Source of the DNA: a virus
Taxonomy: Duplodnaviria > Heunggongvirae > Uroviricota > Caudoviricetes
Reading direction: 5' to 3' (one strand)
DNA: 64,000 bases
IMG/VR virus record: IMGVR_UViG_3300028584_001240
This document shows positions 11,412 through 61,060 of this stretch, piece by piece (position 1 is the stretch's first letter; every line of letters begins with the position of its first letter). Under the pieces are notes generated by a model. That model had not been told where the DNA came from. It did not search any database and saw only the letters and a program-made list of their open reading frames with translations. Position numbers and translations under genes: made by a program.

Positions 11412-12245
11412 TCAAACAAGAATGGCGTTATCAATCTTAAATTCAGGTTCGGCACCGTTGAAGATGAACGCAACCTTGTTTGAAACATCAACAAAGTTTC
11501 CAAGGTCAACTTCTACAACACGACGACGCATAAAACCTTTGGAGTTTTCTTCATTCAAGAACTGTTCTGGAATGTTCGATTCTTCAGCAGTGATAAAGAA
11601 TGATTCGTTACGGACAAAAGTTCCATACTTAAAGAAGTTAGGGAGAGCATTAAAATCTACACCTTTCTTCATCAGCATTTCAATTTTATCAGCACCATTA
11701 ACACCCGTCAGTTGCTTGTGACTGAATTCAGCCATTGCTGCCATACTGATGGAGTTCTTGTAAGCATCCATTGCTCGCCACATAAACATGTTAGCCACTT
11801 CCGAGAAGTTAGGCATGTTGATAATACGGCAATCAAACGTAGGAAGCTTTTGAAGGCACTTTTCGCCCCAGTGTTCAAGAGCGTAGACCATAAACTTAGC
11901 CGTCGCAATAGAAGCTACGTTACTGACCATTTTTTGAATGCGACCATCAAAGAAAATATTGGAACGAGTGTCGCTACCGTACCAAGCAAGACTGATTTCG
12001 TCTGATTGAGTATAGCCCACCGTTGCACCGGTTTCTTTCACAAGGTACTTAGTGACTTCAATCATTGCCATCGAGAGTTTTTCATCGAAAGGCTTCTTCA
12101 TACCCTTAGTAAATTTACTAAAAGAACGACCATCAATACGAGCATAAACAGGCTGAGTACGATCAAAGCGAAGTTTTGTTTCTTTATCTTCGTAGGCTTT
12201 CATACGTTCGCCTAGCGTAAGTTGTTGCAGAGTTTGGTCTACCAT
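11412..12245 (-). CDS. thg1: tRNA(His) guanylyltransferase Thg1 / Thg1-like 3'-5' polymerase
   Basis: RMKAYE, RIDGRSFSKFT, KPFD, GYTQSDEISL, FDGRIQK, FDCR motifs. Confidence 0.92.
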   Translation of the reverse strand: MVDQTLQQLTLGERMKAYEDKETKLRFDRTQPVYARIDGRSFSKFTKGMKKPFDEKLSMAMIEVTKYLVKETGATVGYTQSDEISLAWYGSDTRSNIFFDGRIQKMVSNVASIATAKFMVYALEHWGEKCLQKLPTFDCRIINMPNFSEVANMFMWRAMDAYKNSISMAAMAEFSHKQLTGVNGADKIEMLMKKGVDFNALPNFFKYGTFVRNESFFITAEESNIPEQFLNEENSKGFMRRRVVEVDLGNFVDVSNKVAFIFNGAEPEFKIDNAILV

Positions 12246-12304
12246 GATGTTTCTCCTTTTGGTTAAGACCCGGCTATAATAACAAAAACACAACAAAAAA
12301 TCAA

Positions 12305-19772: not shown

Positions 19773-20900
19773 ATGGGAAAGCAAAATAAAAAGAAAATTG
19801 AAGAGTTTGAATCGAGCGAAATGCGATTCAAGCAATCTATTGCCAATCATTCAAACAAAGTAAAATTTGAAAACTCAACCAAACAAGAAGTGCCAGCCAT
19901 TAATGAAATTGAAACTGAGTTGCTTGCTTTCGCTGTTAATGATCCTGATGCTTTCAAATACACCCTGAAATCAAGCAATCGTGACAAAAAAGTCAAACTT
20001 TTGGCAAAATTTCTTTTTTCAAAATACAAAACCCCAAAAATTCTTGAACAAGTATGGGATGGCCCAGCCATTCCAGATCGTGCCCACACCAAAAAGAAAT
20101 CATCAGCAATTCGTTATCGTAAATGGTTCGTGTGTGCCGCCACAGGTGGCTCTCTTTACAAGGAACATTTGAAACCATTCTTGACAAAAAAAGAAGGGGC
20201 TAATTTTGTTAGTTGTCCATTTGATTTGACCATCGATCAAGCCATTGTTTACTCTATTGCATTGGCAGAAAGTGATCGTGCCGGTGCTGCATTGCGTATC
20301 GCTAAATCAAAATTAAATGAAAAAAACTATGAAACTGAGTTCTGGAAGAATGTTATCAAGTTCTTTGCCCAAGAGGGTAAAACACCAGAAACCGTAGAAC
20401 AAATTAACGACTTGGTTGACTTTATCAATGCTCAAAAGCTTGAAAATAACAACTTTAATATTTTTGGTAATGGTTGGACACTTGCCTCGCTTATCAAAAG
20501 AACACATGATTGGCACTATGAACTTCGTCGTGCTAAAAAAATGGGTACCTTTACTTGGGATGGTCATGATTTCAAAAATTTCAGCTTTACTAAGCGTAAA
20601 GATGAATACAATGCTGAGGAATGGACACTGACTCAAATTAAATCATCCAAAGAATTGCTGGAGGAAGGTAAGCAACAACACCATTGTGTATTTGGTTACA
20701 AAAACTCTTGCATTGATGGCTCAACATCCATTTGGTCTTTGAAAATGAACGGAAAACGAAAAGTGACCATTGAAGTGCGTTCTAACTATAACATTGTACA
20801 AGCTCGTGGTTTTGCCAACAGAAAAACAACAGGTGAAGAAGACAACTTTATTAGACTTTGGGCTAATGAAAACAATCTTAGCCTCAACTATCGTTATTAA
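19773..20900 (+). CDS. PcfJ-domain protein
   Basis: ELLEEGKQQHHCVFGY…IWSL…TIEV…VQARGFANR is the PcfJ signature. Confidence 0.85.
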   Translation: MGKQNKKKIEEFESSEMRFKQSIANHSNKVKFENSTKQEVPAINEIETELLAFAVNDPDAFKYTLKSSNRDKKVKLLAKFLFSKYKTPKILEQVWDGPAIPDRAHTKKKSSAIRYRKWFVCAATGGSLYKEHLKPFLTKKEGANFVSCPFDLTIDQAIVYSIALAESDRAGAALRIAKSKLNEKNYETEFWKNVIKFFAQEGKTPETVEQINDLVDFINAQKLENNNFNIFGNGWTLASLIKRTHDWHYELRRAKKMGTFTWDGHDFKNFSFTKRKDEYNAEEWTLTQIKSSKELLEEGKQQHHCVFGYKNSCIDGSTSIWSLKMNGKRKVTIEVRSNYNIVQARGFANRKTTGEEDNFIRLWANENNLSLNYRY

Positions 20901-21389: not shown

Positions 21390-22226
21390 CTAGGAGTCTT
21401 CTTTTTTTCCAAACACAATAACATATTCATCCATTCGGCCCACATTAAAGCCATAGGTATCCATCCAAAATATATTATCTTTATCTTTAAAGCGTTTATG
21501 GTTTCTTTTCCTCATATAAGTAGAATAAGCTTTTTCTTGATTGAAACGAATTCGATCAAAAAATTCATTGCTTATTTGACTACCATGAAAAATAGATTCA
21601 GTGATTAGTTTCTTCAAAATGTATTCTTTCTTATTGTGACCAAGTAATACACCATCGTCTATCAATAATAAAGCAGTTTCTTCAAGGATTTGAAGCTTAC
21701 TTTTCGATGTTAAGCTTCCAGTCACTTCAAGCAGTCTTTCAAGTCCAAAACCCACATCTATGCAAGTATCCATTGTATTAACAATATTCCCTATCTCAAC
21801 ATAGTTCTTGTAAAACTCTGTGCAATATCCACCAATACTACCATCTGACCAGACACATTCAGGATCTAAACGTATTTCAACGCCATATTCAGAATAAAGG
21901 TCTTTCCAGTCTTCATATTTATCAGGGTGAATAGTTACATAGTCTGGAATAATACCCAGCTTATTAACAAAGGAATACATGAAATCAATAGCTTTTTTAA
22001 GTGTCCATTGTCTAAATGAAAATAAACCTATCATTTCAAATTTTAAAAAGTGTGTGCCATCACCTATTTCGTCTAGGTCATTAATTCTTAGGCATTGCTG
22101 GATGTTAGTAAATGTGTTGGTGTATTCTAGGTTAGAATATAAGGGTTTAAATTGTTGCATACCAGATGTGGTAAACAGAGTTGTATCGTCAGGACTTTTG
22201 ACAGATGAATTTATATGAAAGTCCAA
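21390..22226 (-). CDS. Stand-alone alanyl-tRNA synthetase catalytic-core-like protein (class II aaRS)
   Basis: DDTTLFTTSGMQQFK, QQCLRINDLDEIG..TH…FEMIGLFSF, EIGNIV, IDVGFGLERL (AlaRS motifs 1-3); lacks editing and C-Ala domains; true start uncertain. Confidence 0.85.
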   Translation of the reverse strand: MDFHINSSVKSPDDTTLFTTSGMQQFKPLYSNLEYTNTFTNIQQCLRINDLDEIGDGTHFLKFEMIGLFSFRQWTLKKAIDFMYSFVNKLGIIPDYVTIHPDKYEDWKDLYSEYGVEIRLDPECVWSDGSIGGYCTEFYKNYVEIGNIVNTMDTCIDVGFGLERLLEVTGSLTSKSKLQILEETALLLIDDGVLLGHNKKEYILKKLITESIFHGSQISNEFFDRIRFNQEKAYSTYMRKRNHKRFKDKDNIFWMDTYGFNVGRMDEYVIVFGKKEDS

Positions 22227-42348: not shown

Positions 42349-42645
42349 TTAATCTTGGCTATCAACTATATCTTGATATTCATCGAATGTGAGTAATTCA
42401 ATATTTTTGAGAAATTCTTTCTGATTTTTAAAGAGCAAGAAATGGAAAGGTTCAGAATCATGAACGTAAGCATAAATCTTACCATCAACAACCTCAATAA
42501 AATTTCCCATGAAGTCTTCTGCTAGGTAACTGTCTTTTTCTCTGTCTTCACCATCATCAAATAACTTAAAGGCAAATTCTTCATCTAACGCATCAATCCA
42601 CACCAAAAACATACATTTTTTATTTTCATCGTCATCGTCAATCAT
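42349..42645 (-). CDS. Small acidic hypothetical protein
   Basis: 98-aa ORF with GGAG RBS. Confidence 0.6.
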   Translation of the reverse strand: MIDDDDENKKCMFLVWIDALDEEFAFKLFDDGEDREKDSYLAEDFMGNFIEVVDGKIYAYVHDSEPFHFLLFKNQKEFLKNIELLTFDEYQDIVDSQD

Positions 42646-53791: not shown

Positions 53792-53881
53792 TTAGTTGTT
53801 CTCCTGAATTTTCATAATTATAGCAAAGAATAGCCTTCAACGCAACACTTTTTTAAAATAGTTCGTAAATAGTTGAAAAAG

Positions 53882-53907
53882 AAAAAAGCCAGAAAAATCT
53901 GGCCTTT
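53882..53907 (-). terminator. Intrinsic terminator after structured RNA copy A
   Basis: GCCAGA-TTTT-TCTGGC followed by a U-run on the minus strand. Confidence 0.75.
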
Positions 53908-53924
53908 CATCTGCTAGTCGCTGC

Positions 53925-54050
53925 CTAACAACATATACTTGGCCTTTGTAGCCTGACCTATGCGGGTGCTTACGCGAGTCCTGTGTTCTCTTTTAAAGAG
54001 CAGGGGGACAAAAATCCCGGCTCTATTAGCTTACGCCAATTCTTTGTTAG
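53925..54050 (-). ncRNA. Unknown structured RNA, copy A
   Basis: GC-rich intergenic island, terminal stem CUAACAA/UUGUUAG, colinear similarity to 55650-55751. Confidence 0.6.
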
Positions 54051-54553
54051 TCATTATAGACATCCAGCTTACGAAAGAGTTCAAATAATTCTTGATTTCC
54101 TTGTAAACGATCTAGAAAACTATTATCTTGACCATTAAACATTTCTAAGGTGACGAAGAATTCTTCAATATAATAGAAAGTTTGACCAAAACTATTATGC
54201 TGAGATAAATAAGCATGTGATGTAACGCCAGTATTGGTTTCTAACAGAATGACCAAATCCTTTGTTTCACCATAATAAACAGCTACCAGACCATTTTCAC
54301 CAGCTTCGGCCACCGCCTCAATAAACTCATCTTCAACTAATTCGTTAAAGATATCTTCTGTTTTGTCTTTATCAACATAGAAAATGAATGCACCATGATC
54401 TTGTGGTCTTGAAAATAGATCTTCCAAGTCAAATAGACTGAATACATCATTTACGTTATCATCGGATACATCACCAAACACCATTGCCAGATCAGGCACT
54501 TTAAAACAATGCACTAAGCTGTCTAGTTTTGGATTTTGGATTTCATGAAACAT
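54047..54553 (-). CDS. Acidic hypothetical protein, pair H
   Basis: K.D…K.PD…FG.VS and VDK..TE…GE/DN..V.VY..G..KDL.I..ET shared with 54566..55069. Confidence 0.75.
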   Translation of the reverse strand: MFHEIQNPKLDSLVHCFKVPDLAMVFGDVSDDNVNDVFSLFDLEDLFSRPQDHGAFIFYVDKDKTEDIFNELVEDEFIEAVAEAGENGLVAVYYGETKDLVILLETNTGVTSHAYLSQHNSFGQTFYYIEEFFVTLEMFNGQDNSFLDRLQGNQELFELFRKLDVYND

Positions 54554-54565
54554 AATTATTTTCCT

Positions 54566-55069
54566 TTATTCTTCTTCAATAGAAATTTCTTTCAACGCGG
54601 CCAATATTTTAGGAGCCTTACCAACATAATGATAGAAATTGGATTCTTTGTCGTTCATAAGATCTTTTGTTGGGTAAAAATGCGGAACCTCAACAAAATC
54701 ATCAAGAATATCATGTTCACCTTTTAAATCACAGCCTGTCATAAAACCTGAAGTCTCCATCCAAATAATCAAGTCTTTATCACCTAAGTGATAAACAACC
54801 ACAAACGCATTATCACCACATTCATCAAGAGAGTCAACATATTCGTGATTCGTCAATAGTGTTATAACTCGTTCAGTTAACGATTTATCAACTAATGCAA
54901 GTTCAGCATCATGATCATAACTTTCTTCGAGAAATTTTTCAAGCTGTTCAACTGTAGTAATGTCTAAGCTATTTTCACCTGAAACATTACCGAAAGCAAT
55001 AGAAATATCAGGCTTTTTCAACAGACCAATCACATTATCAATTTTAAGATTTTTAATAAGTTCTGCCAT
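54566..55069 (-). CDS. Acidic hypothetical protein, pair H
   Basis: Paralog of 54047..54553. Confidence 0.75.
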   Translation of the reverse strand: MAELIKNLKIDNVIGLLKKPDISIAFGNVSGENSLDITTVEQLEKFLEESYDHDAELALVDKSLTERVITLLTNHEYVDSLDECGDNAFVVVYHLGDKDLIIWMETSGFMTGCDLKGEHDILDDFVEVPHFYPTKDLMNDKESNFYHYVGKAPKILAALKEISIEEE

Positions 55070-55103
55070 TTTTTCCCCTTAGTTATTTATCAGTCATACT
55101 GGT

Positions 55104-55487
55104 TTAAAAGTTAATGAAATTATGATCAAACATATTATGGTTATAAATCTGAGCAATCTGACCATCAGGATACGCTAAGACATAATCCGCCATATACATT
55201 TCATCTTCGATCTCTGGATCGTATAAAATATCTGTCTTCTCGTAAGTATCATACAACTTATCAATCATATACTCACGAAAATCATCATCAGTTAAAGATT
55301 TCCCATGTTGCTCACATATGTCAGCAATATTAAAATTATATTCCTTCATAACGTTATTGTATAATTTCATAAGAGATTTAGTATTAAGAGACAACAATTC
55401 ATTTTCTGTTTTAATCGTCTTTTTACCATCCTTAATTGCTGAACGGCTAATCGCTTTTTTTAAAACCTCAATAACAATCTGCTTCAT
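55104..55487 (-). CDS. Hypothetical protein
   Basis: Start refined to MKQIVIEVL (GAGGA RBS); the longer ORF-track start runs into tRNA-Gly. Confidence 0.65.
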   Translation of the reverse strand: MKQIVIEVLKKAISRSAIKDGKKTIKTENELLSLNTKSLMKLYNNVMKEYNFNIADICEQHGKSLTDDDFREYMIDKLYDTYEKTDILYDPEIEDEMYMADYVLAYPDGQIAQIYNHNMFDHNFINF

Positions 55488-55531
55488 AGAATGTCCTCTT
55501 TTATAATTAGAAATCACTGTAAACCACAAAT

Positions 55532-55552
55532 AAAAAAACACCCGAAGGTGTT
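55532..55552 (-). terminator. Terminator of tRNA/ncRNA operon
   Basis: AACACC-TTCG-GGTGTT followed by a U-run. Confidence 0.8.
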
Positions 55553-55559
55553 GTAAATT

Positions 55560-55633
55560 TGGAGCGGAATACGAGGATCGAACTCGTGTAGCCAGCTTGG
55601 AAGGCTGGAGCACAGCCACTATGCCAATTCCGC
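55560..55633 (-). tRNA. tRNA-Gly (TCC)
   Basis: GCGGAAT/ATTCCGC acceptor, CCAGC-CTTCCAA-GCTGG anticodon arm, TTCGATC T-loop, encoded CCA. Confidence 0.95.
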
Positions 55634-55649
55634 AATAACGATTAAACTC

Positions 55650-55751
55650 ACACTTCCAGTTTGCTTATACTCGCTTTTGCAGTCTTCGCAGATCCTGTGC
55701 TCTCGTCGGGAGTAGGCTTCTAGAGCCTTGCATAATTTCTTTGCTGAGTGT
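55650..55751 (-). ncRNA. Unknown structured RNA, copy B
   Basis: Terminal stem ACACU/AGUGU; homologous to 53925-54050. Confidence 0.6.
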
Positions 55752-55761
55752 TTATTTAATC

Positions 55762-55873
55762 TGGTGCGGAACGGTCTTACAACACGAACCACATATCTTT
55801 CGTGCCCATTTAAGGGCTTTACAGTAAAGGGTTTTAGCCCTGTCGCTGGGGTAGATTACTGCTATCTTCGCCC
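55762..55873 (-). ncRNA. Multi-hairpin RNA ending in ACCA
   Basis: About five consecutive hairpins; 3' ACCA followed by the same GATTAAA trailer as tRNA-Thr. Confidence 0.45.
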
Positions 55874-55881
55874 AACCAAAA

Positions 55882-56010
55882 TGGTCTGCTTGTATTCGGA
55901 CTTGAACCGAAGATTAAATCCTCAATGACTCTTTCAGCCCCGGAAGCCTTAGCTGTGGTTGACTAGTATACCACAACGTTCATTAATTCATCAATAAACC
56001 TATTACAAGC
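55882..56010 (-). ncRNA. tRNA-like RNA with expanded central region
   Basis: GCTTGTA/TACAAGC acceptor stem, TTCGG-TTCAAGT-CCGAA T-arm, 3' ACCA; no canonical anticodon arm. Confidence 0.6.
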
Positions 56011-56023
56011 ATAAATTTTAATC

Positions 56024-60972: not shown

Positions 60973-60985
60973 AAATATTTTCAAG

Positions 60986-61056
60986 TTCGCACTTAGGGTA
61001 GCGTATCACCTATTTTAACAACCTTATTTCTAAGGTCACTCGTGCCTAAACGGCTA
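60986..61056 (-). ncRNA. Small structured RNA in tRNA-fMet trailer
   Basis: 10-bp G-U-containing stem with GAAA tetraloop; possible UUAGG/CCUAA pseudoknot. Confidence 0.4.
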
Positions 61057-61060
61057 AATC

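Follow-up and report, generated by a model that had tools for sequence, protein, structure and literature searches.

The 64,000-nucleotide (nt) stretch of DNA analysed here, hereafter the window, is filed as a virus of the class Caudoviricetes (IMG/VR record IMGVR_UViG_3300028584_001240). It contains, in and near a transfer RNA (tRNA) operon, two segments, A and B, which an earlier note, made from the sequence of the window without database searches, had described under positions 53925-55751 as two diverged copies of one unrecognised structured RNA. The sequences quoted in that note for both segments were indeed found where it had placed them. Both are non-coding and stand out, as it had remarked, as islands of 47-48% guanine–cytosine (GC) content in flanking DNA of 24-37%. 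Their placement was also correctly described: B lies between tRNA-Thr and tRNA-Gly, and A between the stop codon of the open reading frame (ORF) ORF168 and an intrinsic terminator. Read along the minus strand, a promoter-like site is followed by tRNA-Thr, by two modules called seg1 (tRNA-like) and seg2, by B, tRNA-Gly, a terminator and three small ORFs; downstream of these come A, its terminator, a promoter and ORF497. The features of the locus are the following.

56157-56129, minus strand: promoter-like site opening the operon, ahead of tRNA-Thr
56099-56024, minus strand: tRNA-Thr(UGU), which opens the operon
56012-55883, minus strand: seg1, a tRNA mimic upstream of B in the same operon
55882-55762, minus strand: seg2, a multi-hairpin, non-tRNA module between seg1 and B
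55640-55761, minus strand: element B, a structured RNA domain of ~122 nt (~122-128 nt as an RNA; seven ortholog variants)
55633-55560, minus strand: tRNA-Gly(UCC), 100% identical across all relatives
55552-55537, minus strand: intrinsic terminator after tRNA-Gly
55490-55104, minus strand: small ORF
55069-54566, minus strand: ORF167, a paralog of ORF168
54553-54047, minus strand: ORF168, of which element A would be the 3′ untranslated region (3′ UTR)
54047-54049, minus strand: stop codon of ORF168
53911-54046, minus strand: element A, a multi-hairpin RNA of ~136 nt directly after the ORF168 stop codon
53908-53883, minus strand: intrinsic terminator closing the A transcript (from a terminator scan; two compensatory pairs)
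53791-52298, minus strand: ORF497

The reading favoured here, with moderate confidence, is that A and B are two different and unrelated non-coding RNA elements of the minus strand, B being a stable small RNA derived from the tRNA precursor and A an RNA element of the 3′ UTR of ORF168. The earlier description had been made on the plus strand. The functional strand is the minus one, because the G.U pairs of both elements favour it: when the same helices are scored on either strand, pairing reaches 96.0% (A) and 98.8% (B) on the minus strand versus 86.3% and 93.5% on the opposite one. The neighbouring genes, tRNAs and terminators all have this orientation too.

Syntenic loci from at least five lineages could be reached through protein homologs of ORF497 and ORF128, which provided seven distinct variants of B (alignment A4) and eight of A (alignment A5). 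Mean column identity amounts to 95% over the seven B variants and to 84% over the eight A variants. Comparison of the window with four relatives gives the following identities.

Both tRNAs: 100%
B core: 90-98%
A: 76-90%
seg1: 84-98%
seg2: 78-98%
ORF497 codon positions 1+2: 89-96%
Third codon positions of ORF497, ORF168 and ORF167: 47-74%

Third positions of ORF168 taken alone are at 47-68%. Since the identity of A and B is far above that of neighbouring third codon positions, each of them is under clear purifying selection. The constraint on B is about equal to that on the best-conserved protein positions nearby, and ~100 nt of it are kept almost as strictly as the flanking tRNAs. Covariance models were built from eight A orthologs (R1) and seven B orthologs (R2). 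R2 finds exactly one copy per genome; R1 also finds one copy per genome, exclusively downstream of ORF168 orthologs.

The architecture of B consists of a long closing stem, an A-rich internal loop, and a helix, P2, which opens onto three hairpins. Its first nucleotide, G55761, adjoins the ...CACCA with which the preceding module ends, and its last, C55640, lies 6 nt ahead of tRNA-Gly; B is the third of three non-tRNA modules located between tRNA-Thr and tRNA-Gly. Its parts are as follows.

55747-55761, minus strand: 5′ strand of the closing stem (P0 55761-55754, P1 55751-55747; P1b continues to 55746-55744)
55640-55659, minus strand: 3′ strand of the closing stem (P1b 55659-55657, a GA bulge, P1 55654-55650, P0 55647-55640)
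55665-55735, minus strand: upper domain (P2 55735-55730 with 55670-65, enclosing P3, P4 and P5)
55728-14, 55712-02 and 55697-80, minus strand: hairpins P3, P4 and P5 within P2

The closing stem (P0, P1 and P1b) comprises 16 pairs, three of them compensatory, and 97.3% of its alignment cells are paired. GAUUAAA/UUUAAUC is replaced by GAUAAGA/UUUUAUC in the relative L072, and ACACU/AGUGU, already recognised in the earlier note as the terminal stem of B, becomes UUACU/AGUAA in L085, which amounts to two compensatory pairs. The long-range helix P2 (UUAUGC/GUAUAA) carries a U-A to C-G exchange in L072. The two substitutions involved, U to C at 55734 and A to G at 55666, are the only interior changes outside loops that are unique to L072, and together they restore the P2 pair. 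A C to U change converts a C-G pair of P3 into U.G, and the remaining interior substitutions lie in the P3 and P4 loops, so that every interior substitution of B either keeps a pair or falls in a loop. A hypervariable patch at 55690-55685 corresponds to the apical loop of P5, which reads UGCGAA, UGCAAA or UUUAUG, or forms a GAAA tetraloop after a deletion in L072. The whole model contains 35 pairs, four of them compensatory, with 98.8% of cells paired. None of 500 shuffles reaches it, and slid controls show 31-38% pairing.

Two other identities were considered for B and rejected. A small protein gene is incompatible with the 2-nt deletion of L072, which breaks every frame. B has a single frame that starts with AUG, of 22 codons; it is among those broken, and a 6-nt replacement in L085 falls within it as well. 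A tRNA or transfer-messenger RNA was sought in B, seg1 and seg2 with ARAGORN, introns being allowed and thresholds lowered, and none was found apart from a spurious plus-strand call.

Element A is organised differently, as a linear row of six hairpins ahead of the terminator, the last ones being P6 and P7. The best-defined helices are listed below.

54025-54040, minus strand: hairpin P2 (AUURGC-tetraloop-GCUAAU), one compensatory pair, 97.9% of cells paired
53997-54024, minus strand: helix P3 (AGAGY/GCUCU) around a variable inner hairpin, its 3′ strand carrying the boxA-like UGCUCUUUAA
53941-53953, minus strand: hairpin P6 (GGCU-loop-GGCC), G-C to A-U in two lineages, 100% of cells paired
53913-53929, minus strand: hairpin P7 (GUUAG-GCAGCGA-CUARC), G-C to A-U in three variants, 100% of cells paired

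The P2 loop of A (GUAA, GUGA, GUUA, UUCG or UUUG) switches among GNRA, UNCG and other tetraloops. P3 is followed by a small hairpin with a loop ending in GGA, then by an ACC/GGU hairpin. The model contains 41 pairs, seven of them compensatory, and 96% of cells are paired; the number of compensatory pairs is reached by one of 500 shuffles and the covariation score by none. Both A and B thus combine above-neutral conservation with helices showing compensatory changes, and the lack of covariation among homologs, which had been named as an observation that would speak against a structured RNA, is not what the orthologs of A and B display. Two pairings proposed earlier for A are not confirmed. Four of the eight orthologs lack the 5′ strand of the terminal stem CUAACAA/UUGUUAG, the UUAG of which pairs instead with a downstream CUAA in P7, with the G-C to A-U covariation. 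As for the central helix said to be kept with different loops, the conserved partner of GCUCU in A orthologs is an upstream AGAGC.

A simple scenario can be proposed for the production of both RNAs. B would be transcribed together with the tRNAs as part of the tRNA precursor. Its 3′ end would be set by the RNase P cut at the 5′ end of tRNA-Gly, and its 5′ end by an endonuclease acting upstream, within the conserved CCA|GAUUAA trailer. The element, of ~125 nt, would then be freed by the nucleases of tRNA maturation and, its paired ends being protective, should persist as a stable small RNA. Because its interior, the upper domain, is near-invariant, B might well work through a defined fold, for example by protein or RNA binding or by catalysis, rather than serve as a mere spacer. 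A would form the structured 3′ UTR of ORF168, ending at the intrinsic terminator; it is probably a small RNA derived from this 3′ UTR, or else an element or stabiliser of the messenger RNA 3′ end.

Several observations weigh against this reading. Taken alone, B shows no folding advantage over shuffled sequence (z -0.11 at 55650-55751; -1.9 with the outer stem), and its covariation-based model lies 6 kcal/mol above the minimum free energy. Just seven B variants are available, all at least 88% identical; most B pairs are invariant and, because they never vary, give no evidence either way on the fold. That B is set free as a separate, stable RNA is our inference. A is present solely where an ORF168 ortholog precedes ORF497 and is missing in the lineages lacking ORF168 (L059, L057 and L060), because of which it is dispensable for the neighbouring ORF497 operon. 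Finally, A and B may still have a very remote common origin.

The same position within the operon could be explained if B were a cis-acting spacer only, its closing stem being an RNase III or RNase E processing site which separates the upstream module from tRNA-Gly, with B having no function of its own after cleavage. The stem begins right after the ...CACCA of the upstream module and stops 6 nt short of tRNA-Gly, it is the best-supported helix of B, and the GAUUAA trailer is also found after tRNA-Thr. However, such a role leaves unexplained ~98 near-invariant interior nt in lineages where the stem, seg1 and seg2 vary, and in distant relatives (L057) B is absent, the upstream module being joined to tRNA-Gly. 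A spacer of this kind is thus considered unlikely.

A more ambitious interpretation would go further than the stable small RNA favoured here. B, the tRNA mimic and seg2 would form a dedicated new set of functional RNAs cut from the tRNA precursor, in which B would act as a ribozyme of a new kind, as the core of a new ribonucleoprotein or as an RNA that binds tRNA, in connection with the unusual tRNA biology of a ~1.9-Mb genome that encodes a Thg1-like enzyme and a fragment of alanyl-tRNA synthetase (AlaRS). This can be offered only as a rather doubtful proposal. The two modules upstream of B have distinctive features of their own. Seg1 has an 8-bp acceptor-type stem and a canonical T-arm (UUCGG-UUCAAGU-CCGAA), with three long arms replacing those of the D and anticodon type. 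Compared with shuffled sequence its folding is much better (z -3.55), and one 8-bp stem shows several compensatory changes below an invariant 10-nt loop, AUACUAGUCA. The tRNA mimic holds the position at which a tRNA-Tyr gene would presumably be expected by comparison with the thrU-tyrU-glyT operon of Escherichia coli. Hairpins with covariation are also present in seg2, where GAU/AUC, for instance, is replaced by GGC/GCC below a conserved AGCAGUA loop. The CCA-like end of seg2 is not kept in all relatives: in L085 it reads CUA.

Some further observations concern these upstream modules. A more distant seg1 homolog is found at L057:60-210. The part of the operon between tRNA-Thr and tRNA-Gly (55634-56023) looks like a mosaic: seg1 shares 98% identity with L064 and 85% with L077, whereas the corresponding values for seg2 are 88% (L064) and 98% (L077). 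These values suggest recombination between lineages within the tRNA operon.

No known RNA family accounts for either element. The earlier note had proposed a comparison with Rfam and considered that a match would remove the novelty; in Rfam 15 neither A nor B has a match, and tRNAs alone reach the gathering thresholds in the window. Relaxed Rfam searches with the window locus and six ortholog loci returned no recurrent match in the bodies of A or B. The best sub-threshold match, to the rimP leader RF01770 (33.6 bits versus a 47-bit threshold, 53854-53940), spans just P7 and the terminator and not the conserved body of A.

This partial match, together with the sequence of P3, leads to the possibility that A serves as a signal for antitermination (nut-like, with a boxA) or for attenuation, governing read-through of its terminator into ORF497. 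The motif UGCUCU[U/C][U/A]AA, located after a hairpin, does resemble the boxA consensus of rrn operons, which is UGCUCUUUAACAA, and the terminator part accounts for the 33.6 bits against RF01770. But every ortholog has its GCUCU paired with AGAGY, whereas boxA acts single-stranded, and the motif lies at the 3′ end of a gene, not in a leader; A therefore does not present a single-stranded boxA downstream of a promoter. The same 10-mer occurs by chance at 42428-42437, in a short frame (<150 amino acids, read by eye), and ORF497 retains its own conserved promoter past the terminator, also in lineages without A. With a rimP score under threshold that reflects a terminator-like hairpin only, an antitermination or attenuation role for A is judged very unlikely.

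The relationship between A and B was the central point of the earlier note, which regarded the two as diverged copies sharing a core helix and colinear blocks. In the window, they do have CAAAGAA and GAGA[AG]CACAGGA in common, in the same order, and the local alignment reaches z 2.6-3.3 under lenient scoring. Over all scoring schemes z varies from 1.4 to 3.3, and 4 to 169 per 1000-2000 shuffles equal the observed similarity; the stricter scoring gives 169 of 2000 shuffles, and other tiles of the window then outscore B. The resemblance does not recur in every genome bearing both elements: the alignment z is 3.3 for the window, 2.1 for L071, 0.0 for L085, -0.5 for L077 and -1.5 for L072. Because it is at chance level in three of the four relatives (L077, L072 and L085), it appears peculiar to the window genome. 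GAGA[AG]CACAGGA is invariant in B, whereas the same place in A orthologs is occupied by GAGAAUAGCGGA, AUAAAGACAAGGA, GAAAAUAUAGGA and other variants.

The covariance models lead to the same result. R1 scores the A copies from which it was built at 200-216 bits, and R2 gives 153-165 bits on its building B copies and on L089 and L090, which lie on JGI contigs belonging to the lineages of L085 and L072. In reciprocal searches, run unfiltered over stretches of 600-900 nt (900 nt for R1 against B), R1 finds nothing in B and R2 nothing in A. Besides, any two RNA modules of the locus have one or two 7-mers in common, as A and B do, and the sharing of 7- and 8-mers among all its RNA modules and those of distant relatives is at background level. 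The architectures also differ, a closing stem with P2 and three hairpins in B and a row of hairpins leading to a terminator in A. With no sequence or profile similarity across orthologs, A and B appear unrelated, and their descent from one structured RNA family, already largely refuted by these comparisons, is highly improbable. The other part of the earlier claim, a conserved structured non-coding RNA without Rfam match, is supported for each element by its slow evolution and compensatory changes. It follows for further work that no joint A/B model is advisable, as the new two-copy family does not hold; what the locus offers is two independent new candidate RNA motifs, each with ortholog alignments and covariation-supported structures.

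Least probable of all is that B, and perhaps A, acts as a sponge for a CsrA/RsmA-type protein by displaying GGA motifs: B does contain CAGGAUC and CUGGAAG, most variants have in addition a CUGGA hairpin loop, and A retains one conserved GGA as the last letters of a hairpin loop, but three GGA per ~100 nt is near the figure of about 2 given by a rough composition estimate, B of the window has CUAGA in place of the loop GGA, two of the three GGA lie in helix bulges and not in loops, and the only Csr/Rsm family match is a terminator-only CsrC fragment (E = 0.2). The many loop-exposed GGA of CsrB/RsmZ are thus not found in B, with its 2-3, mostly bulged motifs.

Among known systems, phage T4 RNAC and RNAD come closest to B in their location, being small RNAs, other than tRNAs, that are transcribed within a cluster of tRNA genes and whose biological roles have yet to be established (PMC3014915, PMC9697503). 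Like them, B, seg1 and seg2 lie between tRNAs in one transcription unit; as between the two elements, a location of this kind holds for B only. T4 RNAC and RNAD are small stable RNAs, whereas B would be so if it is processed as proposed above. The elements of the window also differ from the T4 RNAs in that none of 50,697 phage records resembles them in sequence and in that the host is here no recognisable phage, relatives being found on contigs of up to 1.9 Mb. In E. coli, functional spacer RNAs are released from the transcribed spacers of tRNA operons during maturation. One of them, 3′ETS-leuZ, acts as a sponge (bioRxiv 10.1101/2021.04.25.441314). Sponges of this type have a short, linear pairing site and work with Hfq, unlike B, which is ~125 nt long, highly structured and conserved over nearly its whole length. 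The likeness of B to the T4 RNAs and to the E. coli spacer RNAs would thus be one of position and presumed manufacture, not of sequence.

Element A has to be compared with another class. Bacterial small RNAs derived from 3′ UTRs usually start at the stop codon, are co-oriented with the gene and end at an intrinsic terminator. A likewise runs from the stop codon, in the orientation of ORF168, to an intrinsic terminator, but it is much more structured than the typical seed-bearing small RNAs of this class. The Gammaproteobacteria rimP leader RF01770 resembles the A region in its terminator hairpin and U-tract, whereas the metY-rimP-nusA context is absent here.

B is the more remarkable of the two, being conserved nearly like tRNAs and adjoining a tRNA mimic. 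RNAs of tRNA clusters such as T4 RNAC and RNAD have been unexplained for decades, and a second, unrelated and constrained example could help to make the question testable. The lineage that carries it is uncultivated and absent from GTDB representatives and from phage and plasmid collections. Protein homologs of ORF497 and ORF128 were obtained from metagenome assemblies only, and several of the contigs bearing them are large (0.5, 1.28, 1.84, 1.86 and 1.9 Mb; ENA, JGI and Logan). Relatives L072, L077, L089 and L090 are each on single contigs of 1.28-1.9 Mb, because of which the phage context is doubtful: the window belongs to an uncultivated genome of about 1.9 Mb which is no recognisable or typical phage. 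Searches of INPHARED and PLSDB with the locus and its neighbours (tblastn, megablast) matched tRNAs alone, and blastn against the 50,697 phage records gave no match to the elements. ORF497 has no relative in IMG/VR, and GTDB species genomes contain neither an ORF497 relative nor the B pattern. A pattern scan of IMG/VR with GAGARCACAGGANNNGCG gave 53 matches, all by chance and without the surrounding motif. A search of JGI metagenomes added two contigs, both of lineages already sampled, and the 78-codon open frame across B, searched as a protein to reach orphan contigs, returned nothing. The signals of this genome are of the bacterial type and comprise Shine-Dalgarno sites, promoters resembling those of sigma-70, and intrinsic terminators.

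For many proteins of the window, indeed for most of its ORFs, neither Pfam nor PHROG offers a family; those encoded also include a chemoreceptor and an M3 peptidase. The following three ORFs together point to a tRNA-centred gene content near an odd tRNA operon.

11412-12296, minus strand: Thg1-like tRNA-His guanylyltransferase or tRNA 5′-repair enzyme
19773-20900, plus strand: PcfJ-like protein
21390-22226, minus strand: AlaRS catalytic-core fragment of 278 amino acids

Between the tRNA operon and A, ORF167 and ORF168 are paralogs with 27% identity. ORF168 belongs to no Pfam or PHROG family, and Pfam matches at E up to 5 for ORF128, ORF167, ORF168 and ORF215 include nothing credible. A distant ORF128 homolog (P0021, at L083) lies within an array of small ORFs including a SUKH/SMI1-KNR4 immunity-type protein. 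There are hints that the small genes of the window at 54047-55490 (minus strand) belong to an immunity-like gene array.

Two other blocks of the same general kind were seen. An ~85-nt GC-richer block at 60976-61060 (minus strand), located between tRNA-Met (61135-61061) and a terminator (about 60971-60952), shows the same layout, a putative RNA module ahead of a terminator, and is not detected by the A and B models. Distant relatives without A and B have a different conserved element of ~95 nt between tRNA-Gly and the terminator (L060:27-140 and L057:295-410), closed by UAGGUA/UACCUA and containing a GGUUG/CAACC hairpin.

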